Shown here: in pieces, positions 909-61,516 of the stretch
Position numbering within the stretch: the first letter of the stretch is position 1
How the letters are laid out: each line of letters begins with the position of its first letter
Origin: Candidatus Parvarchaeota archaeon
GTDB taxonomy: Archaea > Nanobdellota > Nanobdellia > WJKC01
NCBI GenBank assembly: GCA_030615175.1
Contig: JAUWZX010000001.1
Coordinates: 588,044-652,043, forward strand
Reading direction: 5' to 3'
DNA length: 64,000 nt
Position numbers and translations under genes: made by a program
Notes under the pieces: model-generated
What the model saw: only the letters and a program-made list of their open reading frames with translations
Databases searched by the model: none
What the model was told of the DNA's origin: nothing

Positions 909-1048
909 GGGGCTGTAGTCTAGCCTGGTCTAGGACCCGTGGTTTGGGACCAACCCTTTTCTCGCTTCGCTCCAAAAGCGTTGACGGAAAAGGATTTAAA
1001 ACGTTGGCAGAATACCGCGAGACCCCGGTTCAAATCCGGGCAGCCTCA
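909..1048 (+). tRNA. tRNA-Pro (anticodon UGG) with 65-nt intron at canonical 37/38 position (949..1013)
   Basis: Hand-folded cloverleaf. Acceptor GGGGCTG (909-915) pairs with CAGCCTC (1041-1047, one G-U). D arm GTCT..GGAC. Anticodon stem CGTGG (938-942) pairs with CCGCG (1015-1019). Loop TT-TGG-G gives the anticodon. T arm CCCGG-TTCAAAT-CCGGG (1024-1040), discriminator A1048. The anticodon stem closes only if 949..1013 is removed. Confidence 0.85.
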
Positions 1049-2035
1049 TACTTCACGACCAGCCAAGAAATTAATGAAACCCTTCAACAAATCCTTATCA
1101 GAATTAGAAATCTTAAATTCACTAATAATGCTTAACGCCTCCTGCACATGATTCTTAATCTCACTGACAACGTATTCATGCGCACCAGTCTCTTCAACAA
1201 ACATGGTAGCCTTACTAACATCCTCATCACTAACACAATCCTTACTAAGAATATCCTTCAACATGCCTGAATCATCACTCTTTAATGCATGAAGAATCAC
1301 TAAGTTGCCCATCTTATGCTCAATGAAATCCTTGCCAATCTTCTTACCAAACTTGGATTCATCACCAAAAACGTCAAGCAAGTCATCAGTTAACTGTAAA
1401 ATCAAACCAAACTCCCTGCCAAAACGCTTGCATAACCCTAACTGAGTCTTAGAAGCGTTAGCAAGCAGGGCGCCGAGAAAACAAGCCTCCTCAAAAATGA
1501 CAGCTGACTTAAGATAAATCATATTATAATAATCATCAACACTAATCTTGCTAAAGCGCTGCTTAACAGCGAATTTCTCATGCCCTGACTGCTCAAACAA
1601 TATGTCAAACATTTCTCCCTGACTGACAAGTGAAAGAATCCTCTGAAAAGAATCAGTAACGCTCATAACACCAGACTTCAATGCCGCCCTCACTACAGCT
1701 GAAGCATAATAAAAATGAACGCATTCAGTGATTGAATTGCCAAACTTTTCAATAACAGTCTCCTTGCCCCTCCTAATCACGCCATGGTCAATAATGTCAT
1801 CAACTATTAAAGAATACTGATGAATAAGTTCAATGCCGGCAGCAGGAATCAAAGCCCTGTCAACATCCCCTCCAAAGGCCTTGCAGAGGAAAAGAAGCAG
1901 GGCAGGCCTCAACCTCTTGCCGCCAGTCCTGACACAGTAAAGAATTAAATCATGAAAAAAAGGGTCAAGAGTCTCTAATAATAATTCTTCTATCACATGA
2001 TTAACGCGCGAACCCAGTTCAGCAAATTCGTCCAT
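1046..2035 (-). CDS. idsA: polyprenyl (geranylgeranyl) diphosphate synthase
   Basis: 329 aa. GGKRLRP near the N-terminus and both Asp-rich prenyltransferase motifs (LIVDDIIDHG and LTDDLLD). Confidence 0.85.
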   Translation of the reverse strand: MDEFAELGSRVNHVIEELLLETLDPFFHDLILYCVRTGGKRLRPALLLFLCKAFGGDVDRALIPAAGIELIHQYSLIVDDIIDHGVIRRGKETVIEKFGNSITECVHFYYASAVVRAALKSGVMSVTDSFQRILSLVSQGEMFDILFEQSGHEKFAVKQRFSKISVDDYYNMIYLKSAVIFEEACFLGALLANASKTQLGLCKRFGREFGLILQLTDDLLDVFGDESKFGKKIGKDFIEHKMGNLVILHALKSDDSGMLKDILSKDCVSDEDVSKATMFVEETGAHEYVVSEIKNHVQEALSIISEFKISNSDKDLLKGFINFLAGREV

Positions 2036-2036
2036 T

Positions 2037-2882
2037 TTATTTCAACTCATGCAATAACTTAGTAATATCATTCTTGATTCCTTGCTTGATTAAAGGCGTC
2101 TTCTTAATGACCGGGTAACGCTCCTGATAAGTTTTCTCCCTTACCTTGTAGAAAACCCCTATTGGAATGCGCTTACCCCACTCCATTGCACGCTTAACAG
2201 CCTTAATCCTTGTAGGCTCAGGATTCCTTAACTTGTAAACCCTCTTATTGTACCAGTCATAAGTATTCTTCTTGTTAAGAGTAACGCATGGCTGTAAAAT
2301 GTCAATCACTGCAGCGCCCTTATGCATCACCGCCTTCTTCATTAAACCTTTAAGGTGATTAACATCGCCTGCAAAGCCGCGGGCAACGAATGTGGCGCCA
2401 GCACTCAAGGCCAATAATAATGGATTAACTGCCTTCTCAATAACGCCGTAAGGAGTCGTCTTAGTAATAAAGCCCTCATCACTCGTAGGGGAAGCCTGCC
2501 CCTTAGTTAAGGCATAAATCTGGTTATCATGAACAAAGTAAGCAACATTAATATTGCTTCTGCAGAAGTGAATGAAGTGATTAGTGCCCTCAGCATAACC
2601 GTCACCATCACCGCCGCAGGCAATGACTTTAAGCTCGTGATTAGTTAATTGAATGCCCTTAGCTAGAGGCAGGAGTCTGCCATGCAGCCCGTTAAAAGCG
2701 TAAGTCCTGACCCATTGAGGAATCTTGCTTGAGCAACCAATACCTGAAGTGAGGACGACTTCATGAGATTTTAATCCAAGCTCTGCCAGCGCCGCCTTTA
2801 AAGCCACAAGTATTGAAAAATTGCCGCAGCCAGGGCACCAGTTAGGGCGTTCCCTAGTTTTTAAGTAATCAGTGTCAATCAT
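2037..2882 (-). CDS. 2-oxoacid:ferredoxin oxidoreductase, beta (TPP-binding) subunit
   Basis: 281 aa. N-terminal WCPGCGNF cysteine motif and GGDGDGYAEG TPP-binding motif. 4-nt overlap with the upstream alpha gene. Confidence 0.85.
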   Translation of the reverse strand: MIDTDYLKTRERPNWCPGCGNFSILVALKAALAELGLKSHEVVLTSGIGCSSKIPQWVRTYAFNGLHGRLLPLAKGIQLTNHELKVIACGGDGDGYAEGTNHFIHFCRSNINVAYFVHDNQIYALTKGQASPTSDEGFITKTTPYGVIEKAVNPLLLALSAGATFVARGFAGDVNHLKGLMKKAVMHKGAAVIDILQPCVTLNKKNTYDWYNKRVYKLRNPEPTRIKAVKRAMEWGKRIPIGVFYKVREKTYQERYPVIKKTPLIKQGIKNDITKLLHELK

Positions 2883-6329: not shown

Positions 6330-8024
6330 TCAAGTAATTTTAAATGCTTTTAAGAGATTGCTCAAGCTAAGAGTATTAATGACATCCTTCTCCCTTGCCC
6401 AGGCGCGTCGGGCAGTGCCAATGCCTAAACGCATGAATTCAAGATGGCTTGCAGAGTGAGCGTCAGTATTAATGGCTAATTTACATCCTGCCTTTAACGC
6501 CTCCCGCGCGTCAGCATCACTTAAGTCCAGTCGCGCAGGGCAAGCATTAACCTCTAAGTAAGTGCTGGCCCTCTTAGAAGCCTCGAAAACCCTAGGCCAG
6601 TCAAACTCGCAGCCAGTTTTTTGCAGGATTTTCCTTCCAGTAGGGTGAGCAATAATTTTAACGTAAGGATTCTCCATTGCCCTGATTAACCTGTCAGTCA
6701 TTGCCTTACTATTAAGAGAGAATTTAGCGTGGATGCCTGCAACAACGAAGTCAAGCACTTTTAATACCCTGTCATGAACGTCAAGAGAGCCGTCCTCTAA
6801 AATATTAACTTCAGCTCCACGCAGCAATCTGATTCCTGGAATACTCATTTTCTTAATCTCATGCGCTTGCTTAATTAGCTTCCTTTCATTCATGCTGTTA
6901 GCAATCCTTAACTTCCCTGCATGGTCTGTGATTCCGATATACTCATAATTAAGTGACTTGGCTTTCAAAGCCATCTCCTTAATTGAGTTAGCGCCGTCAC
7001 TATAATTAGTATGGCAATGCAAGTCGCCTTTAATAGAGTTATAAGGTATTAATTCAGGGATTTTTTTCATCCGCGCTGCCTGAATCTCACCATGATTCTC
7101 GCGCAGTTCTGGAGGAATGAATTGTAATCCTAATTTATTATAAATTCCTTTTTCAGTCCTGCCGGCAATCATTTTATTATTCTCGAATAAGCCGTACTCT
7201 GATAGTTTAAGCCCTTTTAATTTTGAAATAATTCTTAAAGCAATGTTATGGTCTTTCGAGCCTGTGAAGTACTGTAAGGCAGCTCCGAATGATTCTTCTT
7301 TAATAATTCTTAAATCTGAATTAATGCCTGACTCAAGGCGCACGGAGCACTTGGTTTTACCGCTCGCGATTACTCTGCCAAGCTTTAAGAATGCTTTAAC
7401 AGCATTATCATTCCTCGGGCATACTAGTATGTCAATATCCGCAACTGACTCCTTCATCCTCCTGATAGAACCTGCTATTTCAATTAATTTAGAGTAAGGA
7501 CTTAATTCTTCTTTAATGAATTCTGCTTCTTTTAAGGCATTTAATAATAAGCTTCTTTTCTTCTTCACGTAAGCCATTTTAATGTTTTCTAAAATCAGCT
7601 GTTCTTTACGCTCCTTAAATCCTGAAATCTTCTTAATCCTGCCTTCCTTGGCTGCCTTCTCCAAATCCTTTAATGATTTAATGCCCAGTTCAGCGTGTAA
7701 TTTCTTAACAGTTTTTGGTCCGATTCCTTGAATGTTCATTAAGTCAATGAAGTTGAAAGGAATTTTCTTCATTAACCTGTCATGATGCCTTGACCTGCCT
7801 GTCTTTATTATTTCCTCAATCATTAATGAGATGTTGCGTCCGACGCCTGGAATCTCGTCCAATGCCTTAAGTCCTCCATGTTCATAAATTTTTGAAACAT
7901 CCTCTGACAATCCTTCAATTGACCTTGCAGCGCGAGCGTAAGCCATGGGCTTGAATTGCATGTCAAGGATTTCAAAGGCGTATGAAATTTCTTGAAGAAT
8001 TTTAGAGACAAGAACGTTCTTCAT
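6330..8024 (-). CDS. polX: family X DNA polymerase with C-terminal PHP domain
   Basis: 564 aa. Helix-hairpin-helix motifs (GVGRNISLMI, GIGPKTVKKL), pol-beta nucleotidyltransferase Asp pair (VADIDILV), PHP motifs (GDLHCHTNYSDG, ITDHAG, NTDAHS). Confidence 0.85.
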   Translation of the reverse strand: MKNVLVSKILQEISYAFEILDMQFKPMAYARAARSIEGLSEDVSKIYEHGGLKALDEIPGVGRNISLMIEEIIKTGRSRHHDRLMKKIPFNFIDLMNIQGIGPKTVKKLHAELGIKSLKDLEKAAKEGRIKKISGFKERKEQLILENIKMAYVKKKRSLLLNALKEAEFIKEELSPYSKLIEIAGSIRRMKESVADIDILVCPRNDNAVKAFLKLGRVIASGKTKCSVRLESGINSDLRIIKEESFGAALQYFTGSKDHNIALRIISKLKGLKLSEYGLFENNKMIAGRTEKGIYNKLGLQFIPPELRENHGEIQAARMKKIPELIPYNSIKGDLHCHTNYSDGANSIKEMALKAKSLNYEYIGITDHAGKLRIANSMNERKLIKQAHEIKKMSIPGIRLLRGAEVNILEDGSLDVHDRVLKVLDFVVAGIHAKFSLNSKAMTDRLIRAMENPYVKIIAHPTGRKILQKTGCEFDWPRVFEASKRASTYLEVNACPARLDLSDADAREALKAGCKLAINTDAHSASHLEFMRLGIGTARRAWAREKDVINTLSLSNLLKAFKIT

Positions 8025-16281: not shown

Positions 16282-17424
16282 ATGCATTCAATAATCATTC
16301 ATTATGCTGAAATAGGATTAAAGAAAGGCAAGAGAGCTTTTTTTGAGAATAAATTAATGCATAACATTGAGAAAAAAACAGGGTTCAGGCCTGAAAGGCA
16401 TTATGGTAGTTTAATAATTGATGGCGTAAGCCAGAAAAAGTATGAATTAATTAAGAATGAATTAAGTAACACGCCGGGCATAGCATACTTCTGCCATGCA
16501 TTAAAGGCAACTTTAACAATTAATTCAATCATTAATAAAGCAGGCAAATTATTAGGTAAGAATAAAACATTCAAGGTAGTAACCAAGCGCTCTAATAAGG
16601 CATTCAAGCATACTTCAATTGAAGTGAATAAATTAGTCGGCGAGCACTTCTATAACAAAGGATTTAAAGTTGACGTTCACAATCCAGAGCAGAGATTATA
16701 CATTGAAGTGATTGAGAGGAATGCTTATGTTTATATTGAGAAAATCAGTGGGTTGGGCGGGCTGCCTGTCGGCTCAAGCGGCAAGTTATTATTACTTGTT
16801 TCTGGAGGCATTGACTCGCCAGTAAGTGCTTATTACATGATGAAGCGCGGGTGCAGGATTGAATTCATTCACTTTTATAATGAGAAGGCAGGCGTTAAGG
16901 AAAAAATAATTGAATTAGTTAAAATACTGTCAAAATTTCAGGGCAGGTCAATTATTTACTTAATTCCATTCAGGGACATTCAGAAGGAAATCATTCTTAA
17001 GACTCCTAGTGATAAGCGCATGATTATTTACAGGCGCTTAATGCTCAGGATTGCTGAAAGAATTGCAGAGCAAATAAAAGCCAAGGGACTCATTACTGGC
17101 GACAGCGCAGGACAAGTCGCCAGCCAGACGCTTGATAACCTGAGAGTTATTTGGAATGCAGCGTCCCTGCCTGTTTACGCTCCACTCATCGGCTTTGATA
17201 AGGAGGAAATAATTAATATTGCGAGGAGGATTGGGACTTATGAAACGAGCATACTGCCTTACAGTGACTGCTGCAGTTACCTCGTCGCCAAGCATCCTGA
17301 GACAAGAGCTAAGTTAGAAGACATAGAGAGAATTGAGAAGAGATTAAACATAGAAAGGTTAGTGAATAAAGGACTGAGAAATAAGGAAATCATTCATACC
17401 AGATTGCTTCCAACCCTTTTATGA
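16282..17424 (+). CDS. thiI: tRNA 4-thiouridine synthase ThiI
   Basis: 380 aa. THUMP-type N-terminal half and PP-loop LLVSGGIDSPV. The last codons and the stop lie in the repeat/insert at 17392..17459. Confidence 0.85.
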   Translation: MHSIIIHYAEIGLKKGKRAFFENKLMHNIEKKTGFRPERHYGSLIIDGVSQKKYELIKNELSNTPGIAYFCHALKATLTINSIINKAGKLLGKNKTFKVVTKRSNKAFKHTSIEVNKLVGEHFYNKGFKVDVHNPEQRLYIEVIERNAYVYIEKISGLGGLPVGSSGKLLLLVSGGIDSPVSAYYMMKRGCRIEFIHFYNEKAGVKEKIIELVKILSKFQGRSIIYLIPFRDIQKEIILKTPSDKRMIIYRRLMLRIAERIAEQIKAKGLITGDSAGQVASQTLDNLRVIWNAASLPVYAPLIGFDKEEIINIARRIGTYETSILPYSDCCSYLVAKHPETRAKLEDIERIEKRLNIERLVNKGLRNKEIIHTRLLPTLL

Positions 17425-17478
17425 AAAGCGTTGACGGAAAAAAAGAAAGGAAAGATTCTATTCATACCAGATTGCTTC
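17392..17478. repeat. 19-bp direct repeats (17392..17410, 17460..17478) flanking a 49-bp intron-like insert
   Basis: ATTCATACCAGATTGCTTC occurs twice. The insert 17411..17459 begins CAACCCTTTTATGAAAAGCGTTGACGGAAAA, the core shared with the tRNA-Pro and tRNA-Ser introns. Confidence 0.85.
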
Positions 17479-20001: not shown

Positions 20002-20700
20002 CTAATTATGATTTTTCTTATCTGAAATCACCTTACCGTCAAGCATTCTAATGGTGCGCGGAGCTTCTTCCGCTATTATCGGGTCATGTGTTACAATGAT
20101 TAATGTATTCCCTTTATGCCATAATTCCTTAAATACTTTAACAATTCCTCTCCCTGTCTTTGAGTCAAGGTTGCCTGTCGGCTCGTCAGCAAGTATTATC
20201 TTTGGTTCATTAGCGAGTGCGCGTGCAATTGCTATCCTCTGCCTCTCACCGCCTGATAATTGGTAAGGCAGGTGGTGAATCCTTTTACTTAAGCCGACTA
20301 AGTCCAGCAACTTCTTTGCTGATTCATACCTGCTCTTCTCCTCCTTGTTTGCGAATATCATTGGTAATTCAATGTTTTCAACTGCTGTTAAGTTAGGCGT
20401 TAAGTAGAAGAATTGGAATATGAATCCAATATTTTCATTCCTCAGTCTTGTTCTTTCGTTATCATTTAATTCTGAATGGTTTAAGCCGTTAAGCATTACT
20501 TTGCCGTGAGTTGGCTTGTCCAGTAATCCAATTACGTGCATTAATGTGCTCTTGCCGCACCCTGAAGGGCCGAAGATTGTTACGAATTCTCCTTCATAAA
20601 TCTTTAAGTTAACGCCGTCAACTGCTTTAACAATATTATCCTCTCCTAAGGAGAAGTGCCTTTTCACATTCTTTAATTCAATTATTAGCTTTCCTTTCAT
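20002..20700 (-). CDS. ABC transporter ATP-binding protein (MacB/LolD-like)
   Basis: Walker A GPSGCGKST, signature LSGGERQR, Walker B ILADEPT. Confidence 0.9.
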   Translation of the reverse strand: MKGKLIIELKNVKRHFSLGEDNIVKAVDGVNLKIYEGEFVTIFGPSGCGKSTLMHVIGLLDKPTHGKVMLNGLNHSELNDNERTRLRNENIGFIFQFFYLTPNLTAVENIELPMIFANKEEKSRYESAKKLLDLVGLSKRIHHLPYQLSGGERQRIAIARALANEPKIILADEPTGNLDSKTGRGIVKVFKELWHKGNTLIIVTHDPIIAEEAPRTIRMLDGKVISDKKNHN

Positions 20701-21119
20701 AAATCAAGCACTACCTGCACAGTGAATCCTTGCTTTGTTTTCTTTATTTCCATGTCAAAGTAAGTTATTGCTTTAACACTGCTCCTGCGTTCATGAGCAT
20801 CCTTTACTCTCTCTCCTTTAACGATTGCCTTTAATGAATAATTTTTTTCATCTAATTCAACGCTGAACTTGCTTAGGAATACGTTTCTGGCTTCATGCAG
20901 GTATAATAATTCCTCCAGGAAGTCGTATAATAATGATTTCAAGTCTTCTGATTTCTTCTTAAAAGTGAATTTTAATTCAGGCTTCACTGCCTTAATATCA
21001 GTCATTATTTCAGACATTGCGTAGCCCGCGTTCTCAAATGCTTGTGCAATGGTTTTACCGTAAGCCCTGAACATCAGGTCCGCAGTTGCGAGTTCTGAAT
21101 CAATTTCAAATCGTTTCAT
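20697..21119 (-). CDS. archease
   Basis: About 140 aa from ATG 21117-21119 (MKRFEIDSELATADLMFRAYGKT..KAITYFDMEI..). Size and motifs fit archease, the RtcB cofactor. ATGA overlap with the ABC ATPase gene. Confidence 0.7.
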   Translation of the reverse strand: MKRFEIDSELATADLMFRAYGKTIAQAFENAGYAMSEIMTDIKAVKPELKFTFKKKSEDLKSLLYDFLEELLYLHEARNVFLSKFSVELDEKNYSLKAIVKGERVKDAHERRSSVKAITYFDMEIKKTKQGFTVQVVLDL

Positions 21120-21206
21120 AAAGAGTAACAAAGCAATTCCTGATTATTAAGTTTATACCATTGCTTAGCGAAAAGTATTAAAATCCATTATTTTAATTAT
21201 CATTAC

Positions 21207-23439: not shown

Positions 23440-24258
23440 TTACGTTCCATTACTTTTTTTATTTTGTTTTTGATTTAATATAACTAAAACAATTGGTATT
23501 GCCGCTGGAATTATTATAACTAATCTTGATTCAATCGACATAGTAATTAAAAATGCATTTGGAATATTCCAAACAAAAAAAGCATAAATAATATAAACTA
23601 ATATAGCAAAAATTAATTTATTTTCATATAAATATGTTTTACAAAATTTCCTTAAACTAAATCTTAGTTTAGATATGTTAATATCAATTTTATTTAAATT
23701 TTCAATAAGATTAACATGTGTTTCGGAAAATTTATCCTTTTTATGAAATTCTTCATATAACAATTTATAATTTGTTTGTAAAGAAACCTTTTTATTTTTA
23801 TTTAATTCAAAATTCTTAAAGAAAGAATAAATTTTTTCATTTTGTTCTTTTAATTTATTTAAATTATAAATTATCCTTTCATAATCAAAATCCATTACAG
23901 TTTCTTTTCTTTTTCTTTTAATATAATCAATTATATCTGAATTAATTGCATTAATATAGCCAAAACATTCTTCTTGGAAGTGTTTATTTTTTCCATTATA
24001 TTTTTTTATATTTACATATATCTGATAAAGGTCATATGCTAAAATTTCTGAAAAAGACAGTTGAATTGACTTAGGAACTATAAGCAAGCTCATTAATAAG
24101 CATATAAATATCACTCCGCCCAAAATTATTTGTCCAAAAAACAAAGATACAATAAGAATAATCTCGCCTAGGATGAATAAGAAGACCTTAAGATCTCCTC
24201 TTTTATTATTTTTACCTATAATATTCTCTATATCTGTTATCCATTCTGGAACACTCAT
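23440..24258 (-). CDS. membrane protein (2+2 TM with central coiled region)
   Basis: 272 aa. Hydrophobic helices at both ends and a Lys/Asn-rich middle. No family recognised. Confidence 0.5.
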   Translation of the reverse strand: MSVPEWITDIENIIGKNNKRGDLKVFLFILGEIILIVSLFFGQIILGGVIFICLLMSLLIVPKSIQLSFSEILAYDLYQIYVNIKKYNGKNKHFQEECFGYINAINSDIIDYIKRKRKETVMDFDYERIIYNLNKLKEQNEKIYSFFKNFELNKNKKVSLQTNYKLLYEEFHKKDKFSETHVNLIENLNKIDINISKLRFSLRKFCKTYLYENKLIFAILVYIIYAFFVWNIPNAFLITMSIESRLVIIIPAAIPIVLVILNQKQNKKSNGT

Positions 24259-24835: not shown

Positions 24836-25729
24836 TTAATTTAATAGATTAAAAATATCAATTATGGATTTGTTATCTTTGTTTAACAAGAGAATAATGA
24901 GGATTATAACACCAATAATTAATGCCTTATATTCAAAAACAATTTTAGTTATGAAAGGATGACTTCTTTTTAAAAATGGAGGATTATGTTTAACTACATC
25001 GTCTAAAGATATTTCAGAATCTTTTTCTGGTAAATTAAATATATCTTTTATAAAATCTTTCTTATCATCATTATTAATAAATATTTTAAATTGTTTCCTA
25101 ACGATTTTAGCAGTTTTATATATGTAGTCGTTACCAATGTAATCTTTTATTTTATTAATACTCGTTTTTAAATCCTGTTTAAACATTAAACTTTTTTCAA
25201 GGGCAAATTGCTTTAGGATTTTCATAAAATATTTAATAGCTTCAATTCTCTTCTTTGTTGTATTTGATTGATAAAATTTTTTATCTTCTAATTGTCTGTT
25301 TATAAGTTTAAATAGAAATTTTATGTCCTCTCTTTTAACTTTTTTTTCCGAAATTATTTTTAATAACTCTAAAAAACAGTCAGTTAGCCTTTTTTTATCC
25401 GTCAAAAGATATTGTAACAAAAAAAAGGGAAAAATGATTATTGAAAAAAATATCACTGAAAAAAAAGTTATGACGAAAGCGGTTGATTGTATATAGTTAG
25501 AATAATAACTTACCGAGGATAATATTACTACAAAAAAAGTAAACCAAATAAATCTATTTAGAACACTATTTATTTTTATTAAAAATATTAGGTCTGTCTT
25601 TTTGTAAAAAATGTAAAGAACAGAAAAAATTATTAAAGATGTATAAAATAAAATAAATCTCTTGAAAATGAAATTTATAATTAATATAAATCCTGTTAAT
25701 ATTATAAATTTGCCCTTTGTTAGTTTCAT
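24836..25729 (-). CDS. multi-pass membrane protein with C-terminal soluble region and terminal TM
   Basis: 297 aa. At least four N-terminal hydrophobic helices, a charged helical middle, and one C-terminal helix. Confidence 0.5.
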   Translation of the reverse strand: MKLTKGKFIILTGFILIINFIFKRFILFYTSLIIFSVLYIFYKKTDLIFLIKINSVLNRFIWFTFFVVILSSVSYYSNYIQSTAFVITFFSVIFFSIIIFPFFLLQYLLTDKKRLTDCFLELLKIISEKKVKREDIKFLFKLINRQLEDKKFYQSNTTKKRIEAIKYFMKILKQFALEKSLMFKQDLKTSINKIKDYIGNDYIYKTAKIVRKQFKIFINNDDKKDFIKDIFNLPEKDSEISLDDVVKHNPPFLKRSHPFITKIVFEYKALIIGVIILIILLLNKDNKSIIDIFNLLN

Positions 25730-25813: not shown

Positions 25814-27298
25814 TTAAGTTAACTTATTTATCTCTTTAATATTTTTAATAATTACTCTTTTGTACTTTGGAATGGGATAAAAATCTCGAACAATAATTAA
25901 TCCTTTTACAATAGCTTTTTTTGGCAAACCGTAAGTATTCAGATTATCCTTTATGTACTGAACCTTTTCCACTAGACTAACAACTTCCTTAGGTTTTCTG
26001 TCAGTATATTTTTTACCGTCAACAATTCCTTTTAAATCCCTTTCTAAGTATTCATGAAATCTTTTGTGTTCCATTAAATGACGGATTCCCCAATGTTTAC
26101 ATTCTGTAACATAAATAGTTTTTCCTTTCCATGCGACAGCATCAATTTGTAAACTTCTGGTTTTAATCTCTTTAGCTTTAAACCCATTGCTTTTGAATTC
26201 ATCAATCATTTTTTCCCTTTCAAAGTTGTATGATACTTCATTCTTTTTCTTATCAAATAATTCTTTGTGCAAAAAAATGTGTAAGAAAAGATAGAATAAA
26301 AAACAAGTTCTTGGGAATATAATAACCATGTCTCCAAATTCTAAAAAGAAAGGAAATGAAGTTATATTATAATCTCCTACAACAAGCAAATTATACAATT
26401 CTTTATATTTTTTTGGAAACAAATTTGTAAGAACTCCAATAAATTCTTTAATATGAACTCCTATTGGATATGGTGGTTTATAAGGAATTTTTAATTTTGT
26501 TATTATTTGATTACATATTCTTGTTAAATCTGAAGGTTCTATTTTATTTTTAAGATAAAAAAAGTCTAATGTTTCAGCAAATAATAAATTTCTACCAAAT
26601 GCTATATCAAGTTGAATTAACAATCTAAAAAAATTATCATTTTCAAAAAACGACTTTGGTGTATAATGTATTTTTTTAATAGGTCTTTTTAGAATTTTCT
26701 CATACTCTGCCTTGTATTTAGCAATTACCTTTTCTGCTTCTTTTGAGTTATAAACCCCATAATCTCTATAATATTTAAAGATTTCTTTTAAGTCTACAGA
26801 AGTAATTAAATAAAAGTTACTTAATAGATCTTTTGCTTTTTTAAGATTGTACCTTCTTTTTTTGTATGCTAACAGACCAAAACCTTCATTTATTTTTAGT
26901 GTTTCTTCTTTAATTCTTAAAAATTCTGCGAACAGTTCTAAAATCCTTTTACTATCTACAGGGTTTAAGTCTTTACTTCCAAATCTAACTTTATCTCTTA
27001 TCTTTATTAAAAGATAATTTGTTGCCAAAAACTTATATGTTTCTAATAGAGGCACTTTTTCTAAAAAGGAATAAGCTAGTTCTTCTCTCCAATTAGCAAA
27101 ATGAACCAATAATGCGCCTTTTTTATGTTTAGAAAGGAATGACCAAAACATTTTTTCAAGATATTGTGCTCTTTTTTTTGATATATCTAAAGATTTTTCT
27201 TTACTTAATATATTTAATTTAGAACATTTAGGACAAACAGTCTTTGAATTAATAATAAATAATTTTCCATTACATTGTTTACAATAATATCTTTTCAT
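25814..27298 (-). CDS. zinc-ribbon protein with C-terminal PD-(D/E)xK nuclease-fold domain
   Basis: N-terminal CKQC..CPKC zinc ribbon. C-terminal ..LQIDAVAWKGKTIYVTECKHW.. gives the D..E-x-K pattern of restriction-endonuclease/Hjc-like folds. ATG 27296-27298 is preferred over the track's GTG. Confidence 0.55.
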   Translation of the reverse strand: MKRYYCKQCNGKLFIINSKTVCPKCSKLNILSKEKSLDISKKRAQYLEKMFWSFLSKHKKGALLVHFANWREELAYSFLEKVPLLETYKFLATNYLLIKIRDKVRFGSKDLNPVDSKRILELFAEFLRIKEETLKINEGFGLLAYKKRRYNLKKAKDLLSNFYLITSVDLKEIFKYYRDYGVYNSKEAEKVIAKYKAEYEKILKRPIKKIHYTPKSFFENDNFFRLLIQLDIAFGRNLLFAETLDFFYLKNKIEPSDLTRICNQIITKLKIPYKPPYPIGVHIKEFIGVLTNLFPKKYKELYNLLVVGDYNITSFPFFLEFGDMVIIFPRTCFLFYLFLHIFLHKELFDKKKNEVSYNFEREKMIDEFKSNGFKAKEIKTRSLQIDAVAWKGKTIYVTECKHWGIRHLMEHKRFHEYLERDLKGIVDGKKYTDRKPKEVVSLVEKVQYIKDNLNTYGLPKKAIVKGLIIVRDFYPIPKYKRVIIKNIKEINKLT

Positions 27299-27376
27299 TA
27301 ACACATATTAGTTTATTATTAATAATAATTGTTTTGATTAAGTTGATTTAAGGATTCTATATTTTTCAGGTATTTT

Positions 27377-35039: not shown

Positions 35040-36500
35040 ATGCAATGGCAAACAAGTGAGGGAATTGAATTAAAAGAGGTTTCAGAACATAAATGGATGA
35101 TTCCTAAGTCAGGTAAGATGAAGGTTCCTGCAGTAGTATTCGCATCAAAAAAATTGCTCGGCCAGATAAGGAAGGATAGGACGCTCGCTCAGTTGAGGAA
35201 CATGACTGAATTACCAGGGATTTACAAGCACGCAATATGCCTTCCAGACGGGCATCAAGGATACGGTTTCCCGATTGGAGGAGTCGCTGCATTAGATTTC
35301 CATAACGGAGGCATTAGTCCTGGCGGCATTGGGTATGACATTAATTGCGGCGTCAGGATGTTCAGAACTAATTTGAGGAAGGAAGATGTAGTGCCGAGAA
35401 TTAATGAATTAATTAATATTATTTATAATAATGTGCCTTCAGGCGTTGGAGTGGGCGGAAAGCTTGGCAGGATACCGGTCAATGAATTAAACAAAGTTCT
35501 GGATTACGGTGCTAAATGGGCGCTTGATAAAGGGTATGCCTGGAAGGAGGACTTAATGTGTACAGAGGATAATGGTTCACTGGAGGGAGATCATAATCTT
35601 GTTTCGCGGAGAGCGATTGAGCGCGGCAGACCTCAACTTGGCAGTTTAGGGGCTGGCAATCACTTCCTTGAAATCCAAGTAATTGATAAAATATATAATC
35701 CTGAAGTCGCCAGGGCATTCGGCATTGAGAGTGAGGGGCAGGTGACTGGAATGATTCACTGCGGTTCAAGAGGTTTAGGGCATCAAGTGTGCAGTGACTA
35801 CTTAAGGATGATGGAGCGCGCTCAGCCTGAAATAGTTAAATCCTTGCCTGACAGGGAGTTAATTTATGCTCCAGCAGGCAGTAAGATGGCTGGTGATTAC
35901 TTCAAAGCGATGAATGCAGCGGCTAATTACGCCTGGACTAACAGGCAGTTAATACTTCACTGGGTCAGGGAGTCATTCGAATCAGTGTTTAAGAAGAAGG
36001 CTGAGGATTTAGGAATGCATCAAATCTATGATGTGTGCCATAATATCTGCAAGGTTGAAGAGCATGAAGTGGACGGCAGGAAAATTAAAGCATTCGTTCA
36101 CAGGAAGGGAGCGACGAGGGCGATGCCTAAGGGGCACCCGTTAGTTCCTAAAGTTTATGAGGGTGTTGGGCAGCCAGTACTGATTCCCGGCACCATGGGC
36201 ACTGCCAGTTACTTACTGGTTGGCGGTGAGGAGTCGCTTAAGGAAACTTTCGGCTCAACTGCTCACGGAGCTGGAAGAATCATGTCAAGGCATGCAGCAG
36301 CCAAGAAGTACTGGGGTGAGAATATTAAGAAAGAGTTAATGAGTAAGGGAATAATTGTTAAGGCGCGCAGCATGAGAGGCGTTTCCGAAGAGTCGCCTGG
36401 AGCGTATAAGGATATTGATGAAGTAGTGAGAGTCAGTGATGCTTTAGGCATTGGCAGATTAGTGGCAAGAGTTGTTCCTGTAGGAGTTATTAAGGGTTAA
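35040..36500 (+). CDS. rtcB: RNA-splicing ligase RtcB
   Basis: 486 aa. GYDINCGVRM, HCGSRGLGHQ, PGTMGTASY, STAHGAGR motifs. Confidence 0.9.
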   Translation: MQWQTSEGIELKEVSEHKWMIPKSGKMKVPAVVFASKKLLGQIRKDRTLAQLRNMTELPGIYKHAICLPDGHQGYGFPIGGVAALDFHNGGISPGGIGYDINCGVRMFRTNLRKEDVVPRINELINIIYNNVPSGVGVGGKLGRIPVNELNKVLDYGAKWALDKGYAWKEDLMCTEDNGSLEGDHNLVSRRAIERGRPQLGSLGAGNHFLEIQVIDKIYNPEVARAFGIESEGQVTGMIHCGSRGLGHQVCSDYLRMMERAQPEIVKSLPDRELIYAPAGSKMAGDYFKAMNAAANYAWTNRQLILHWVRESFESVFKKKAEDLGMHQIYDVCHNICKVEEHEVDGRKIKAFVHRKGATRAMPKGHPLVPKVYEGVGQPVLIPGTMGTASYLLVGGEESLKETFGSTAHGAGRIMSRHAAAKKYWGENIKKELMSKGIIVKARSMRGVSEESPGAYKDIDEVVRVSDALGIGRLVARVVPVGVIKG

Positions 36501-47940: not shown

Positions 47941-49116
47941 TTATTTAAAAATAGTTTTTAGTGCATGCCTGCTTACTTTCTTAACATGTTTCTTGTTGCT
48001 GATGATTCTCATGCGCCACGTGTTATTGTAAGTTTCATTAATCACTTTAGCCATTAAACTAATCCTTGTTATAGGCTTCAAGCCATTCTTAGTTAATACT
48101 TTTATTCTTGACTCCTTCATGACTGGCAGTTTAGGCAGGTCAATTAATACATCACCGCTCCTTGCTCCTGCAAGACTTGTTAATTCCTTTTCCTTTTCCT
48201 CCTTTAACTTCCAATTAACAGCCATCCTCTTAATCACTGGTTTCTCATCATCACTTAACTCCCTGTACTCCCTGACAACCGCCTGTTTCAGTAAATTCCT
48301 CTCAATCAACCTGCCAGCCTGCCTTTTAATCTCCTTATCACCTGAATTAATAAGTGAGTTAATAACCTCTGAATCATTCATCCTGAACAAGTCATTCTTC
48401 TTAAAAACTTTATTCTTCAACGCTTTTGACAGGCAATAGCACAGCATTGCGTCGCAAATTCTTCCAATCTTATGATTATAAACTGTCTCGCGCATAATGT
48501 ACCTCGCGAATAATAATGCTTCAGCAGCCCTTAACCCCTTCCTATCTAAGACTATGCTTCCTTTATGATTCACTAAAGTGTACAGTAACCTGTCAGCGTC
48601 AACGCCTTTACCGTAAGCCACTCCGCAGTGATGAGCATCCCTTATTAAGTAATCAATCCGGTCAACATCTATGTCATTATCAATTACTTGATGGCTGATG
48701 CACTTATCATTCAGTATTATGTTAATCACGCTCTTAACATTGATACCATGCTTCTCCATTATGCTTGAAATCCTTGACTCATTAATCATATTGACTGACA
48801 TGGTTTCATGATTTGATTTTAAGAATATTTCAGCTAAGTGGGAGAAAGCTGGATGCCCGATATCATGCAGTAGAGCGGCAATCCTTAACCCTGTTAACTC
48901 TTCCCCCTTAATGCCTAACCCGATGCCTGCCTTGTTAGCTAAGTGCATGGTGCCTAGTGAGTGCTCGAAGCGTGAGTGCATTGCTCCAGGGTATACTAAG
49001 TAAATCATTGATAATTGCTTGATGTACTGAAGCCTCTGGAATACTTTGGTCTTAATTAGGGCCTGTTCAGCATTAGTTAATTCAATATTCCCATGAATCG
49101 GGTCCCTGATAATCAT
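47941..49116 (-). CDS. HD-domain phosphohydrolase (dNTPase/SAMHD1-like)
   Basis: 391 aa. HSRFEHSLG, LLHDIGHPAFSH, DVDRIDYLIRD. Confidence 0.75.
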   Translation of the reverse strand: MIIRDPIHGNIELTNAEQALIKTKVFQRLQYIKQLSMIYLVYPGAMHSRFEHSLGTMHLANKAGIGLGIKGEELTGLRIAALLHDIGHPAFSHLAEIFLKSNHETMSVNMINESRISSIMEKHGINVKSVINIILNDKCISHQVIDNDIDVDRIDYLIRDAHHCGVAYGKGVDADRLLYTLVNHKGSIVLDRKGLRAAEALLFARYIMRETVYNHKIGRICDAMLCYCLSKALKNKVFKKNDLFRMNDSEVINSLINSGDKEIKRQAGRLIERNLLKQAVVREYRELSDDEKPVIKRMAVNWKLKEEKEKELTSLAGARSGDVLIDLPKLPVMKESRIKVLTKNGLKPITRISLMAKVINETYNNTWRMRIISNKKHVKKVSRHALKTIFK

Positions 49117-53083: not shown

Positions 53084-53119
53084 TGAATTTCCTAATTGGC
53101 TCTGATACTCAGAATAATA

Positions 53120-53256
53120 CGCCAGGGGCAGGATTTTCCCAACCATTTGTTCTTTTCCGTCAACGCTTTTTTTAAAAGGGTTGTTTTGAACCTGCGCGAG
53201 ATTTCTCTCACTCGCTTTCGAGGCGAGCGCCTTAAACCGGGCTTGGCTACCCTGGC
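53120..53256 (-). tRNA. tRNA-Ser (anticodon CGA) with 51-nt intron in the T-loop (53134..53184)
   Basis: Reverse complement folds as acceptor GCCAGGG/CCCTGGC, D arm GCC..GGC, anticodon arm CTCGC-CTCGAAA-GCGAG, long variable arm TGAGAGAAATCTCG, T stem GCAGG/CCTGC, discriminator G. The T-loop TTCAAA[51 nt]T is interrupted at about position 59/60. Confidence 0.8.
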
Positions 53257-53281
53257 GTGATTAGTAATATCAGGCATAAAG

Positions 53282-56446: not shown

Positions 56447-56540
56447 GCCTCGGTAGCTCAGTTGGTCAGAGCGGTGGTCTTGTAAGAACCTTTTTTTTCA
56501 GGATAACCACAGGTCGCCGGTTCGAATCCGGTCCGGGGCT
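56447..56540 (+). tRNA. tRNA-Thr (anticodon UGU) with 20-nt intron at 37/38 (56485..56504)
   Basis: Acceptor GCCTCGG/CCGGGGC (one G-U), D arm GCTC-AGTTGGTCA-GAGC, anticodon stem GTGGT (56474-56478) / ACCAC (56506-56510), loop CT-TGT-A, T arm GCCGG-TTCGAAT-CCGGT, discriminator T. Confidence 0.85.
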
Positions 56541-57912: not shown

Positions 57913-58151
57913 ACGCCGGGTGTTCTAAGGCGATTCCAATATTTAAAAACTACCCACGCCGAGAACGAGTGCTAAAAACCCTTGAAACCTTCGGGCCTGT
58001 GGGCGTTGACGTTTTACGAATCCTTCTTGGACTAACACGCTCTCAAGTATGGAAAATTTTAAAGTCGCTAGAAAGTCACTGCCAAGCCCAAGTCATCACA
58101 AAGAAGAAAGTAAGTTACTGGGGCGTTAATTCCGGAAAGGAGGTTAAGTGA
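57909..58151 (+). CDS. winged-helix protein
   Basis: 80 aa. ..RVLKTLETFGPVGVDVLRILLGLTRSQVWKILKSLESHCQAQVI... Confidence 0.5.
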   Translation: MNAGCSKAIPIFKNYPRRERVLKTLETFGPVGVDVLRILLGLTRSQVWKILKSLESHCQAQVITKKKVSYWGVNSGKEVK

Positions 58152-59767
58152 TGAATGACCGCCCTAAAAAGAAAGTGGAGTATACTAAAGAGCAAGTTAG
58201 CCTAGCAGTTTTAAAAGGTGATTTTAGAAAGGAACTCCATCCATTAACTGTTTGCGGCAGCTTAGTTGAACACCAACCACTATATTATGACAAGAACAAG
58301 CTTTGGTGGCTCTGGAATAAAAGACTATCCAAGTGGGAAATAATTGATGAAACAGACTTACTAAATTTAATAGCTGATGCTCTTGAATGGGGAGGAATAA
58401 TCAATTCAAGAACTAAAAATGAATACTTAACCGCGCTTCAAATGGTTGCTAGGAAGAATAAGCCGAAAGAAGCACCAGCCAATTGGATTCAATTCAGTAA
58501 TAAAATAGTTGACATTAAAACTGGTGAAGAATTCGAACCTAATTCAGAATACTTCTTCACTAATCCCTTGCCTTGGAGTTATAGTCCCCGCGCTGCAACG
58601 CCGACAATAGATAAATTATTTACTGACTGGGTGGGCGCTGAGCACGTGCAGGCACTTTATGAATTAGTTGCTTACTGCTTGCTCAGGGATTATCCTATTC
58701 AAAGAATATTCGCGTTAGTAGGGTCCGGCAGTAACGGTAAGGGTAGCTTCCTCCGATTATTAAGAAAATTCTTAGGGATTAATAATGTTTCCTCATCTGA
58801 ACTTGAAAGGTTATCTAAAGAACGATTTGAAAGCGTAAAACTGTATAAAAAATTACTATGCGAGATTGCTGAAACAAATGTTAATACCCTACGTTACACA
58901 AGTTTCCTTAAAAGAGCTTCTGGCGGTGACTTAATAGCAGCACAATTTAAAGGCAAACCATTATTTGACTTCGTAAACTACGCTAAACTAGTAATCTGCA
59001 CTAATTCATTACCCATGACACTTGATACAACTGACGGGTTCTACCGGCGCTTTAACATAATTGACTTCATTAATAAATTCCCTGACGGCGAAGAAATAAT
59101 TAATGTGATTAAAGACTCAGAGTACGCTAACTTAGCGCGTAAAAGCGTGGCCATACTAAAGAAATTATTAGAGAGGAAGGGTTTCATTAATGACGGGACC
59201 ATAGAATTCCGGAAAAGCAGGTACGAAGAGAAAAGTAATCCCATAAAGACATTCATTAATATTTTCTACCAGCGTGACCCTGAAGGTTATGCCATTAAAT
59301 ACGAGTTTAATGACTTGTTCTGGCAATTCTCAACTGATAATGGTTACAGGCATTTAAGCGCTAATGAGATAAATAAAGCGTTAAGGAGCATGGGTTATGA
59401 AGTTAAGGGTAAGAATGTGGGAGACAAGACAGTTAAGTGCGTTATTGGTTTAACAAAAGTTACCGAAATTACCAGTAATCCTACTCTTTCTTCTATATAT
59501 GAGAAAGTAAATAGAGATAGCGGTAATCTTGGTAATCTTGGTAACCCTAAAGAGTTTAGTGCTAGGAAAACCAAGAAACATGAGCAACAGGAGTTAGATA
59601 TAATTAAGTGTACGGGCGCCGAGCATTTCGGTAAGTGCAGCCAGTGCGAGAGGGATGATGTGTGGTTAGACCATGCCTTGAGTGAGGGGTTCGGCACTAG
59701 CGAGGAGAAATTCATTTGTGAAGACTGTGCTGGGGCACCTAACGATAATAAGGAGGGTTCTTCGTGA
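58148..59767 (+). CDS. phage/plasmid primase-helicase (P4/D5 family NTPase)
   Basis: 539 aa. Walker A VGSGSNGKGSF, ..LLCEIAET.. Walker B-like, ..LVICTNSLP.., ..RRFNIIDF... C-terminal Cys cluster CTGAEHFGKCSQC..FICEDC. Confidence 0.7.
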   Translation: MMNDRPKKKVEYTKEQVSLAVLKGDFRKELHPLTVCGSLVEHQPLYYDKNKLWWLWNKRLSKWEIIDETDLLNLIADALEWGGIINSRTKNEYLTALQMVARKNKPKEAPANWIQFSNKIVDIKTGEEFEPNSEYFFTNPLPWSYSPRAATPTIDKLFTDWVGAEHVQALYELVAYCLLRDYPIQRIFALVGSGSNGKGSFLRLLRKFLGINNVSSSELERLSKERFESVKLYKKLLCEIAETNVNTLRYTSFLKRASGGDLIAAQFKGKPLFDFVNYAKLVICTNSLPMTLDTTDGFYRRFNIIDFINKFPDGEEIINVIKDSEYANLARKSVAILKKLLERKGFINDGTIEFRKSRYEEKSNPIKTFINIFYQRDPEGYAIKYEFNDLFWQFSTDNGYRHLSANEINKALRSMGYEVKGKNVGDKTVKCVIGLTKVTEITSNPTLSSIYEKVNRDSGNLGNLGNPKEFSARKTKKHEQQELDIIKCTGAEHFGKCSQCERDDVWLDHALSEGFGTSEEKFICEDCAGAPNDNKEGSS

Positions 59768-59992: not shown

Positions 59993-60041
59993 CAGTAAGT
60001 AGTACTGAAGGAAGTATAGGAAGGGGGGGGTACTACTACTG
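59993..60041. other. imperfect 12-bp hairpin with purine-rich 25-nt loop ending in G8
   Basis: CAGTAAGTAGTAC (59993..60005) pairs with GTACTACTACTG (60030..60041) with one bulged A. The loop TGAAGGAAGTATAGGAAGGGGGGGG contains a G8 run at 60023..60030. Confidence 0.6.
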
Positions 60042-60278
60042 TCATCATGTGACAACAGCCCTTACAGTGACTGTAATAGTATTGTAGTGATACCTGCAGT
60101 TGTAACAGTAGCGCCAGCAGCAGTCCTTATAATGCCCGCAGTGATGATGACAGTGACTGTAAGTAATGTCTGCTGTAGGCAAAAGATTTAAATACAGAGT
60201 TATTTAATAAATAATTGAGTTGTAGGTCTTAAGGTATGAGCCATAAGGCCGTTGCCTTAAGATTCGCCAATAACTCAC

Positions 60279-60298
60279 CTCCTGTCGCAAGACAGGAG
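60279..60298 (-). terminator. perfect 8-bp stem with GCAA tetraloop immediately after the stop of ORF 60299..60940
   Basis: CTCCTGTC-GCAA-GACAGGAG abuts the TAG (60299..60301 on minus). A second 8-bp inverted repeat, TCTTAAGG/CCTTAAGA, lies at 60227..60234 / 60255..60262. Confidence 0.5.
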
Positions 60299-60940
60299 CT
60301 ATTTTATTTTTCTAATAAAAAATTTTTTCCGATAAAACCGAGATTGTTTTTCTAGACAATAACCAAGGAACATATCAATAACTTGTATCTCTTTAGATTC
60401 TTTTATTGAAGAAGTTCTTCCATATAAATCTAAAATAAAACCATTAGGTTTTTTTATAGTCATTTTATATACTCTTCCTTCATGTCTGATAGTGGCTTCT
60501 TTATTTATTAATTTTAAAGAAAGTTGCATCATTAAATTTTTAATAAAGTGTTCAGTCCCATTTGGAAGATTCTTTATATTATAATCATTATCAACAATTA
60601 TCTGAACATTCCCTCTTTTAAATTTTAACCAAGGTTCGTAATGTTCAGAAATAATGTAAGGTACTTTTTTAAGGAAAAATTCTTTTCTTTCACATTTAGG
60701 TCTTCTTTCATGTTCAAATACATTAAAATTTAATTTGAAATCATTAACTAAATTATTAAAACCTTTTCTCGCCTTTCCCCTAACTTTTCTACTTATATTG
60801 TGCCAATGATATGGGGAATGTGTACCCGCCTTCATTAAAATTTTACCCATTGCTTTATAAAATTCATAGAGTTGCATGGAAGAACCAGAAACCACTCCAG
60901 TGTATCTCAATCCTTTAGCAGTATCAATAGCAATAAACAC
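60299..60940 (-). CDS. hypothetical protein
   Basis: 213-aa ORF (GTG start), very AT-rich. TATA-like TTATTTATAAATAAG sits upstream on the minus strand. No motif. Confidence 0.45.
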   Translation of the reverse strand: MFIAIDTAKGLRYTGVVSGSSMQLYEFYKAMGKILMKAGTHSPYHWHNISRKVRGKARKGFNNLVNDFKLNFNVFEHERRPKCERKEFFLKKVPYIISEHYEPWLKFKRGNVQIIVDNDYNIKNLPNGTEHFIKNLMMQLSLKLINKEATIRHEGRVYKMTIKKPNGFILDLYGRTSSIKESKEIQVIDMFLGYCLEKQSRFYRKKFFIRKIK

Positions 60941-61472: not shown

Positions 61473-61516
61473 TGATTCTTATTAATTAATTACTAATACT
61501 TAAGAATTGCTTTTCT

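Follow-up and report, generated by a model that had tools for sequence, protein, structure and literature searches.

A hairpin-forming sequence of about 30 nucleotides, repeated in tRNA introns and at other sites in Archaea, is probably a miniature mobile element

Why should two unrelated transfer RNA (tRNA) genes and a site between two protein genes, all within 64 kb of one archaeal genome, carry the same short sequence? The question is raised by a stretch of 64,000 nucleotides (nt) from Candidatus Parvarchaeota archaeon (assembly GCA_030615175.1, contig JAUWZX010000001.1, positions 588,044 to 652,043 of the forward strand), referred to here as the window, whose closest protein relatives are Nanoarchaeia. 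A preliminary description had reported that the block CAACCCTTTT, a spacer and the 18-mer AAAAGCGTTGACGGAAAA occur together in an intron of tRNA-Pro, in an intron of tRNA-Ser and between thiI and an ABC permease gene, and had attributed them to a family of mobile, intron-like elements. Upon re-alignment the combination was found at exactly these three sites, with sequences and coordinates as described: CAACCCTTTT occurs with no mismatch at 951-960, 17411-17420 and 53174-53183(-), and the 18-mer with no mismatch at 974-991(+), 17424-17441(+) and 53153-53170(-), with spacers of 13 nt (Pro), 3 nt (thiI/permease) and 3 nt (Ser). The Ser and thiI/permease copies are indeed 29/31 identical, and their loops read AAA and ATG, respectively. 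Chance, which the preliminary description had already dismissed as the source of the repeat, and low complexity are ruled out by shuffling: the 18-mer with up to 3 mismatches has 4 matches in the window versus 0.08 expected, and 0 of 100 shuffles reached 4. What had been overlooked is that the two blocks make up a hairpin, each contributing one arm. Each of the three copies is a hairpin-forming sequence of 31-41 bases in which CAACCCTTTT and the 3' arm AAAAGCGTTG pair as a 10-bp hairpin with one C.C mismatch, and the 8-nt tail ACGGAAAA directly follows the 3' arm. We consider it probable that the three sites carry copies of a mobile element that is miniature, non-coding and non-autonomous, and that RNA genes would tolerate it on account of its removal by splicing.

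The default tRNA scan and an Rfam scan at gathering thresholds recognised just one tRNA in the window, and the element-bearing introns explain why such standard tools overlook 2 of its 3 tRNA genes. With introns allowed, ARAGORN identified a tRNA-Pro(TGG) gene at 909-1048 (+), to which the Rfam tRNA model gave 39.9 bits under permissive filters, and within it the previously proposed 65-nt intron at site 37/38 (949-1013, +). The tRNA-Ser(CGA) gene (53119-53257, -) with its proposed 51-nt T-loop intron at site 59/60 was recognised by ARAGORN once positions 53134-53184 (-) had been removed; as a more general search for non-canonical introns, deleting segments and rescanning was too permissive to be of use beyond confirming tRNA-Ser. 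Removal of the introns in silico restored tRNA-Pro(tgg) and tRNA-Ser(cga). The junctions were scored by a strict bulge-helix-bulge (BHB) test, a scripted search for a helix-bulge-helix-bulge-helix structure of 14 pairs with (C)CAACC as the intron-side helix. The Pro intron scored 14/14, with an outer exon-exon helix (CGTGG 938-942/CCGCG 1015-1019), a central 4-bp helix (TTTG 943-946/CAGA 1008-1011), an intron-side helix (CCAAC 950-954/GTTGG 1003-1007) and 3-nt bulges (GGA 947-949 and ATA 1012-1014), and RNAfold also closed the intron with CCAAC/GUUGG. The Ser intron scored 13/14, with the T-stem GCAGG/CCTGC as outer helix, TTCA/GGAA as central helix (one A.G mismatch), CAACC/GGTTG on the intron side and the bulges AAA and AAT. 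The two CAACC-type helices pointed out in the preliminary description are therefore real and form part of near-perfect BHB motifs.

Both introns start 1 or 2 bases before CAACC and lie between the sixth and seventh base of a 7-nt loop on a 5-bp stem (the anticodon loop in Pro, the T-loop in Ser), a geometry which indicates that the 5' arm of the element acts as the intron-side helix of the BHB motif. The GGTTG partner of CAACC lies within the non-conserved tail of the intron. In Pro, the core (copy i, 951-991, +) consists of the 5' arm at 951-960, the 13-nt insert CTCGCTTCGCTCC and the 3' arm plus tail at 974-991, and the intron tail resembles a degenerate second 3' arm (TAAAACGTTGGCAGAATA, 997-1014, +; 13/18 match to the 3' motif) that provides the 3' half of the BHB. 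Tandem 3' arms are present also at L030 and L103 (L numbers designate loci), and a Nanoarchaeia metagenome-assembled genome (MAG; L019) has a copy that matches the 42 nt at 950-991 without a difference. In Ser, the core (copy ii, CAACCCTTTT AAA AAAAGCGTTGACGGAAAA) occupies 53153-53183 (-). As a separate observation, the Pro insert (961-973) is a long form, (G)CTCGCT(T/A)(C/A)CGCTCGC, common to cores of different phyla (L003, L005, L016, L019, L089, L093 and L103) and recurring, in one orientation or the other, in sequence that flanks further copies (L036, L038, L042, L077 and L086); this insert is possibly a small repeat in its own right that sits within the loop. Allowing introns also revealed one in the third tRNA of the window, which had gone unnoticed: tRNA-Thr(TGT) (56447-56540, +), labelled tRNA-Tyr by default ARAGORN, contains the 20-nt intron AGAACCTTTTTTTTCAGGAT at 56485-56504 (+). 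Its start (A|GAACC plus a T-run) resembles the 5' arm, and it may possibly represent a decayed copy that keeps just this 5'-arm-like start.

The third copy (CAACCCTTTT ATG AAAAGCGTTGACGGAAAA, 17411-17441, +) has a BHB score of 9, which is the control level, and does not qualify as a BHB intron. The final four codons of thiI, a gene confirmed by Pfam, and its TGA stop lie in this copy, which is surrounded by a perfect 19-nt direct repeat that the preliminary description had missed. The left copy of this duplication (ATTCATACCAGATTGCTTC, 17392-17410) lies in the thiI C-terminus and reads EAIWYE* on the minus strand, and the right copy, an exact repeat at 17460-17478, encodes on the minus strand the functional C-terminus EAIWYE of the permease. 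A gapped alignment lengthens the duplication to ~28 nt, beginning 5 nt after the core, so that the 18 nt between core and right repeat (17442-17459) are probably a diverged duplicate. In a relative whose permease is 69% identical (L126), the 3' ends of thiI and of the permease gene share 17 nt, the duplicated sequence is present as a single copy and the element is absent, which makes this locus an empty site for copy iii. An insertion at 17411-17459 would have parted two overlapping convergent genes, and the 19-bp duplication would have supplied each of them with its own 3' end.

A presence/absence difference was found for the tRNA-Pro intron as well. Two short metagenomic contigs (L247 and L248) encode a homologue, 96% identical, of the polyprenyl synthase adjoining tRNA-Pro. 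Their DNA is 96.0% identical to window positions 914-2339 over 1358 aligned bases, and they carry the tRNA-Pro gene minus exactly the 65 nt at 949-1013. This polymorphism between 96%-identical genomes, together with the element-free, single-copy target at thiI/permease, bears out the earlier statement that the sequence has moved. The tRNA-Pro exons show 3 differences from those of the window, two of which flank the junction within 4 nt, and one of the latter changes the anticodon to AGG. The two independent contigs agree in this intron-less allele (L247 1290-1358, L248 1072-1128); its A34 anticodon is unusual for Archaea. For the tRNA copies alone, an alternative to insertion is that an intron allele spreads by homologous recombination or allele replacement through the conserved exons, or that an intron-less allele arises by precise loss. 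Such an exchange would leave a precise difference with no duplication, as seen here, and would fit both the clustering of 2 of 3 exon differences at the junction, which is like a co-conversion tract, and the presence of the element at the same position in the tRNA-Pro(UGG) of a Methanocellales MAG (L103). The trinucleotide ACC is present at both ends of the Pro intron, a microhomology that makes precise loss as possible as gain. Because identical cores in unrelated tRNAs and tRNA positions, in rRNA and at the thiI/permease junction are left unexplained by allele replacement, we regard it as a rather doubtful account of the tRNA copies, although intron copies of a mobile element may also spread or vanish by this second route, allele replacement or precise deletion. 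For the tRNA-Ser intron no empty site was found, the adjoining HMG-CoA reductase having no close relative in the protein collection.

To determine the distribution of the element, one genome per species was scanned with the 18-mer, which yielded at least 117 loci. Among the matches listed, ~70 archaeal loci carry AACCC[TC]TT 2-82 nt upstream of the 18-mer, the chance of this 8-mer occurring within 120 nt being ~0.004, whereas the bacterial matches lack the 5' arm and several of them resemble promoter -35 regions. The element thus occurs beyond its own genome, which had not been noticed before, and the ~70 further loci with an identical core, many of them in introns of unrelated tRNAs, substantiate the proposed mobile family with a non-tRNA member. 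The preliminary description had counted occurrence of a generic element at very many unrelated sites as evidence against its proposal; the element does occur at such sites, yet this argues for mobility. The carriers are labelled Micrarchaeia, Iainarchaeia, Aenigmatarchaeota, Woese-/Nanoarchaeia, Altiarchaeia, Burarchaeum, ANME-1, Syntrophoarchaeum, Methanocellales, Methanosarcinales, Thermoplasmatales, uncultured haloarchaeon and Hydrothermarchaeaceae. More than 10 archaeal lineages outside Thermoproteales, spanning DPANN and Halobacteriota/Thermoplasmatota, therefore carry the same core, at loci of 35-62% GC. The ANME-1 assignment is supported independently of binning, as a CetZ cluster includes ANME-1 fosmid proteins. 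That the family is common to DPANN archaea and the kinds of archaea they live on suggests horizontal spread. Three loci binned as bacterial, L085 and L114 (Sulfurovum) and L096 (Falkowbacteria), contain archaeal-type intron-containing tRNAs together with the core and are probably mis-binned archaeal DNA.

Several known sources of such a repeat were compared with the family and rejected. A viral origin is not indicated, since the 8 IMG/VR matches lack the 5' arm and look like chance, and there was no match in the plasmid and phage collections. At gathering and permissive thresholds, the tRNA and rRNA models of Rfam were the only ones to match the window sites, related loci and Methanosarcina clusters, which argues against a known structured RNA; comparison by hand with the K-turn, C/D box, hammerhead and pistol consensus failed at defining nucleotides, with no GA 5' of the stem. 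An origin as a fragment or complement of rRNA was likewise dismissed, as the core has no complementarity to the 16S and 23S rRNA of L003, and this check exposed instead copies in rRNA insertions. A purine triplex or mirror repeat, considered from the A-rich tails, was set aside because the tails are better explained by second 3' arms or diverged target duplications. A search of the open-access literature by sequence and topic returned no paper with these sequences or describing such a family, which appears to be undescribed.

The contexts of the copies are diverse. Seventeen copies lie in anticodon-loop introns (of tRNA-Gly, Arg, Ser, Thr, Tyr, Leu, Glu, Pro and others), all in sense orientation with one doubtful antisense call, and more were found in T-loop or D-loop introns. 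A BHB score of at least 13/14 was reached in 10 copies versus 4 of 270 shifted controls. In one Micrarchaeia MAG, the 23S rRNA gene contains two tandem copies, and the 16S rRNA gene has an insertion of 53 nt that is occupied by a variant copy, CAACCTTTTTT...AAAAAACGTTGACGAAAAAAGGTT. Most copies of the family lie outside tRNA genes, and the conserved unit is a hairpin of ~30 nt and not in itself an intron. Outside RNA genes (47 copies), the orientation relative to neighbouring open reading frames (ORFs) is random, with 12 sense and 13 antisense copies at 3' ends and 7 of each at 5' ends. Some copies are read through in frame (ORFs at L095, L057/L039 and L030), the examples including a 1034-codon surface protein (..YNPFIKSVDGKE..) and a protein that translates three tandem 3' arms. 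Two HEPN/PaREP1-like homologues, from Methanosarcinales (L057 3600-3632) and ANME-1 (L039, minus strand, 1047-1079), share at the same position a 33-nt insertion encoding the 11 residues QPFKKALTE[N/K]A, which is either an old common insertion or the result of an insertion hot spot.

Flank duplications like that at thiI/permease were searched for in 64 copies, and 11 of these exceeded the 99th percentile of a permutation control versus 0.6 expected. In 9 of the 11 the upstream duplicate ends 0-8 nt before the core. Across the family, duplication lengths were 10, 14, 15, 19, 21, ~30 and ~68 bp, at times with a few additional bases at the junctions; the beginning of the duplicated flanks is often A-rich, and the element itself ends in an A-run. 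Among the sequences duplicated are a gene's 5' end together with its ribosome-binding site and ATG (L028), the 5' ends of tRNAs (L019 and L105), tRNA 3' ends in antisense (L077 and L114) and, at L067, a segment of 68 nt. At the Methanosarcina loci L136 and L216, repeats of 10 and 31 nt abut the core exactly; the flanks there are themselves repetitive and form tandem [flank+core] arrays, and flank-duplication statistics are consequently uninformative in this genus. Target duplications and empty sites suggest that the element, with the invariant unit of 5' arm, loop or insert, 3' arm and tail, enters DNA at many kinds of site, and that survival of a copy would depend on where it lands. The variable duplication length, the extra junction bases and the exact ends favour insertion of a small nucleic acid over classical transposase chemistry, and we infer that a discrete small nucleic acid is inserted at staggered nicks or breaks.

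In tRNA and rRNA genes, copies in sense orientation would persist because their 5' arm, (C)CAACC, can pair with a downstream GGTTG, often contributed by a second, diverged 3' arm. The CAACC/GGTTG pairing would form the BHB intron-side helix directly beside the 5' splice site and next to a pre-existing stem, which would enable the splicing endonuclease to excise the copy and RtcB with archease to rejoin the exons. RtcB would join the exons and circularise the introns. Both genes are encoded in the window: RtcB, the tRNA-splicing ligase, at 35040-36500 (+; Pfam PF01139, E=9e-166), exactly where it had been placed, and its cofactor archease at 20697-21131 (-; Pfam PF01951, E=1.9e-38), a gene correctly recognised in the preliminary description, which had put it on the plus strand with its end at 21119. 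Between genes, at gene ends and in tolerant proteins that accept it in frame, the copy would simply stay in the DNA. What the analysis demonstrates is the repeat family, the covariation of its hairpin, the BHB geometry, the presence/absence differences and the flank duplications; mobility as their cause, and splicing in vivo, are inferred.

The anatomy of the hairpin bears on what might move or maintain it. Conservation ends sharply, nothing being kept beyond the C preceding AACCC or beyond the final A-run, and 5' of the hairpin there is just a weak preference for A; the loop or insert between the arms varies from 2 to 82 nt. In a metagenome scan in which position 4 of the 5' arm was set to non-C and its pairing partner left free, at least 120 loci were retrieved, dominated by the three variant families CAAGCCTTTT..AAAAGGCTTGAGCGAAAA (79), CAAGCCTTTT..AAAAGGCTTGACCGAAAA (30; 3' arm also given as GACCGAAAA) and CAAACCTTTT..AAAAGGTTTGATCGAAAA (22), in each of which the arms are perfectly complementary. 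Pair 4-20 in 57 distinct 30-nt cores is GC in 20, AU in 12, CG in 9, GU in 4 and unpaired in 12, and 94.9% of cells are paired over these cores, a value that 0 of 500 shuffles reached. A second, overlapping mini-palindrome, yzT-TG-Axw, covaries as well (pair 19-26, GC 42/CG 11); its 2-nt centre excludes an RNA hairpin, so that a DNA palindrome recognised by a protein or a tertiary contact is possible. All families share without exception the tail pattern 'stem - 3 nt - GA - AAA', and TTGA at the stem foot is likewise invariant. The G and A families belong to Methanosarcina, as the ProRS adjoining one copy clusters at 90% identity with Methanosarcina proteins, and these sister families display compensatory changes in the hairpin. 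Methanosarcina-type contigs (L149, L153, L171, L179 and L204) also have intergenic regions dense with several other kinds of short repeat, among them CAACGGTTG mini-palindromes and modules such as GGCGTGATCAACCGGCGCAACGGTTGTGG, and contain hybrid cores that combine the canonical 5' arm with a G-family 3' arm.

These features can be read in another way, namely that the core is a conserved functional module, an RNA or DNA hairpin bound by a universal archaeal factor, acting for instance in RNA processing, stability or chromosome organisation, that is kept by selection and has been recruited to introns and gene ends and does not spread selfishly. The identical 28-nt core in distant phyla at 35-62% GC, the compensatory changes that maintain the hairpin, the retained second palindrome and the invariant tail pattern are all as expected of such a module. 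Its random orientation relative to neighbouring genes is not, nor are copies translated in frame or placed in rRNA and varied tRNA positions, the presence/absence between 96%-identical genomes, the target duplications and the lack of an Rfam family; moreover, a function would still require a way of placing the sequence at new sites. We therefore judge selection for a function to be an unlikely explanation of the family. In the mobile-element reading, the identity of the core across phyla implies that some conserved partner, either a moving enzyme or a binding factor, constrains it.

One candidate partner is a hairpin-recognising HUH/Y1 enzyme that would mobilise the element as single-stranded DNA, as for REP/REPIN-RAYT, IS200/IS605 ends or PATE-like elements, with TTGA as cleavage or target motif. 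An imperfect hairpin with a conserved 8-nt single-stranded tail and an invariant TTGA at the stem foot resembles IS200/IS605 right ends and rolling-circle nick sites, and the clusters and tandem arrays in Methanosarcina would agree with this. However, such systems insert with no target duplication, while duplications of 10-68 bp are seen here, there is no conserved tetranucleotide 5' of the hairpin, and neither the surroundings of 68 loci nor the window yielded a Y1/HUH gene, all of which makes an enzyme of this type improbable. In broader terms, no transposase, integrase, reverse transcriptase, Cas1, HUH or EndA domain was detected among the 63 ORFs of the window, and no neighbouring protein family recurs at the 68 loci. 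A related autonomous transposon with the same ends did not come to light either: in the copies examined the arms are separated by 82 nt at most, and no transposase lies nearby.

A route through RNA has also to be weighed, in which an excised, possibly circular, intron or a processed RNA of the core would serve as template for DNA that is captured where the genome is nicked or broken, in the manner of a short interspersed element, either target-primed or repair-templated. The resulting copies would have their 5' end fixed and their 3' end A-rich, with target duplications of variable length. Long duplications of variable length with occasional extra junction bases, an A-run at the end of the element and duplicated flanks that often begin A-rich are what this route would produce; in intron copies the 5' boundary is the first base after the 5' splice site, and the host splicing enzymes, of which RtcB and archease are present here, yield discrete intron RNAs. 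We nevertheless see little chance that it accounts for the family. No reverse transcriptase is encoded in the window or near other copies, and inserted copies consist of the core alone and lack the intron tails that real excised introns would have. Nor is the core a self-contained minimal BHB intron: when it was modelled as one (GUUG helix, ACGG central helix, AAA bulge), no copy had a complementary upstream exon, the best reaching 7/9 pairs.

A number of points weigh against the mobile element. No mobilising enzyme or autonomous partner was found at the 68 loci or among the 63 window ORFs, and the window contains no splicing endonuclease gene; splicing is a prediction made from sequence. Duplications are detectable in just ~17% of copies and range from 10 to ~68 bp, a signature that, to our knowledge, no known transposase leaves. 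The polymorphism of tRNA-Pro is precise and has no duplication, and that intron may have originated by a different route; its loss in the relative is as possible as its gain in the window, and with two genomes per site the direction of change is not fixed at either site. An exact, AT-rich 28-nt core across phyla and GC contents points to strong purifying selection, which fits a functional RNA or protein-binding site as well or better. Because copies were gathered by exact-match patterns, conservation inside the searched blocks is partly by construction. Finally, some MAG labels are wrong, as the Sulfurovum and Falkowbacteria contigs illustrate.

A more far-reaching proposal casts the hairpin core as the recognition module of a dedicated pathway that makes BHB introns de novo and that would carry the element between DPANN symbionts and host archaea. 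Such a pathway might use products of the splicing endonuclease and RtcB, or a repair polymerase; we offer it tentatively and think it rather unlikely. If it were true, the element would be the first identified 'intron seed' for non-canonical archaeal tRNA and rRNA introns, and Methanosarcina would be a tractable system for watching intron birth. Least credible of all are stray or degenerate CRISPR-like repeats, suggested by a palindromic unit of ~30 nt with a GAAAA end that is sometimes in tandem with 25-60-nt spacers (L003, L092 and L153). The spacing is irregular and the 'spacers' are identical within arrays, the loop varies up to 80 nt, copies lie in tRNA and rRNA introns and in ORFs, and the window has no cas genes; the contexts found effectively refute this idea.

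Other features of the window are noted for completeness. Two solitary partial matches to the 3' motif have no 5' arm: AACGTTGATGGAAAAAAG at 872-889, which lies ~20-37 nt upstream of tRNA-Pro and directly after a stop codon, and AAAAGCGTTGAAGAATAA at 48410-48427(-), with 3 mismatches. A family-X DNA polymerase (Pol beta thumb, HhH and PHP domains), a gap-filling repair enzyme, is encoded at 6333-8024(-), and its possible relevance would be to the filling of staggered insertion sites. Just downstream of tRNA-Thr lies a D5_N/DUF5906 primase-helicase-like ORF (58148-59764), followed at 60000-64000 by a region with several ORFs that have no Pfam match and with a GC skew of -0.26; the region downstream of tRNA-Thr may be an element integrated at the tRNA. 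The segment 24001-28000 has a very low GC content (0.26), and three sizeable ORFs, at 23443-24258, 24839-25729 and 25817-27304, have no Pfam match.

The element offers a concrete, sequence-defined agent for the question of how archaeal BHB introns are gained. Its assets are sharp ends, copies both in and outside RNA genes, empty and filled sites in close relatives, and sister families in the cultivable and genetically tractable Methanosarcina. The interest of the family is high because the origin of archaeal introns becomes experimentally approachable. The element would be among the smallest mobile elements known and among the few shared between archaeal phyla, and might accordingly serve to trace the exchange of DNA between DPANN symbionts and the archaea that host them.

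Comparison with known systems reveals partial likenesses. The imperfect hairpins of 20-40 nt in REP/REPIN-RAYT systems and IS200/IS605-derived palindromes are likewise non-coding, clustered and present in many copies; unlike REP/REPIN, the present element has no GTAG/CGTC head, no RAYT/TnpA was found at its loci or in the window, and it has target duplications and copies in genes and introns. REP sequences are also species-specific, whereas this core is shared between phyla. Like miniature inverted-repeat transposable elements it is small and non-autonomous, with inverted-repeat ends (the 10-nt arms CAACCCTTTT/AAAAGCGTTG) and flanking direct repeats, but it differs in its size of ~30 nt, in the 8-nt tail outside the 3' arm and in duplications of 10-68 bp instead of a fixed length, and we know of no parent transposon for it. 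Rickettsia palindromic elements, reportedly described by Ogata et al. in 2000 as repeats of 100-150 bp in one bacterial genus, are also short, palindromic and selfish, occur in frame in protein genes and in RNA genes, and contain no ORF; we know of no transposase for them. In contrast to those elements, which are confined to a single bacterial genus and are not spliced out, the element described here is ~30 nt long, spans several phyla and forms BHB introns. Yeast mitochondria contain mobile GC clusters, which are very short selfish hairpins. In Volvox organelle genomes, short selfish palindromic repeats occupy intergenic DNA, introns and sometimes coding regions (PMC2670323). These tiny hairpins colonise regions similar to those found here, in other hosts, with other sequences and with no link to BHB splicing. 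The closest parallel within Archaea is provided by the transposed tRNA introns of Thermoproteales, whose removal is BHB-dependent (Fujishima et al. 2010, in Yoshihisa 2014, PMC4090602). Both cases involve highly similar introns in non-homologous tRNAs and positions (here Pro 37/38, Ser 59/60 and 17 elsewhere) that are removed, or predicted to be removed, through a BHB; unlike the whole introns shared in Thermoproteales, a type confined to the tRNA genes of a single order, the shared unit here is a hairpin of ~30 nt, which extends across phyla and is present also in rRNA genes, intergenic DNA and ORFs, with target duplications and empty sites.

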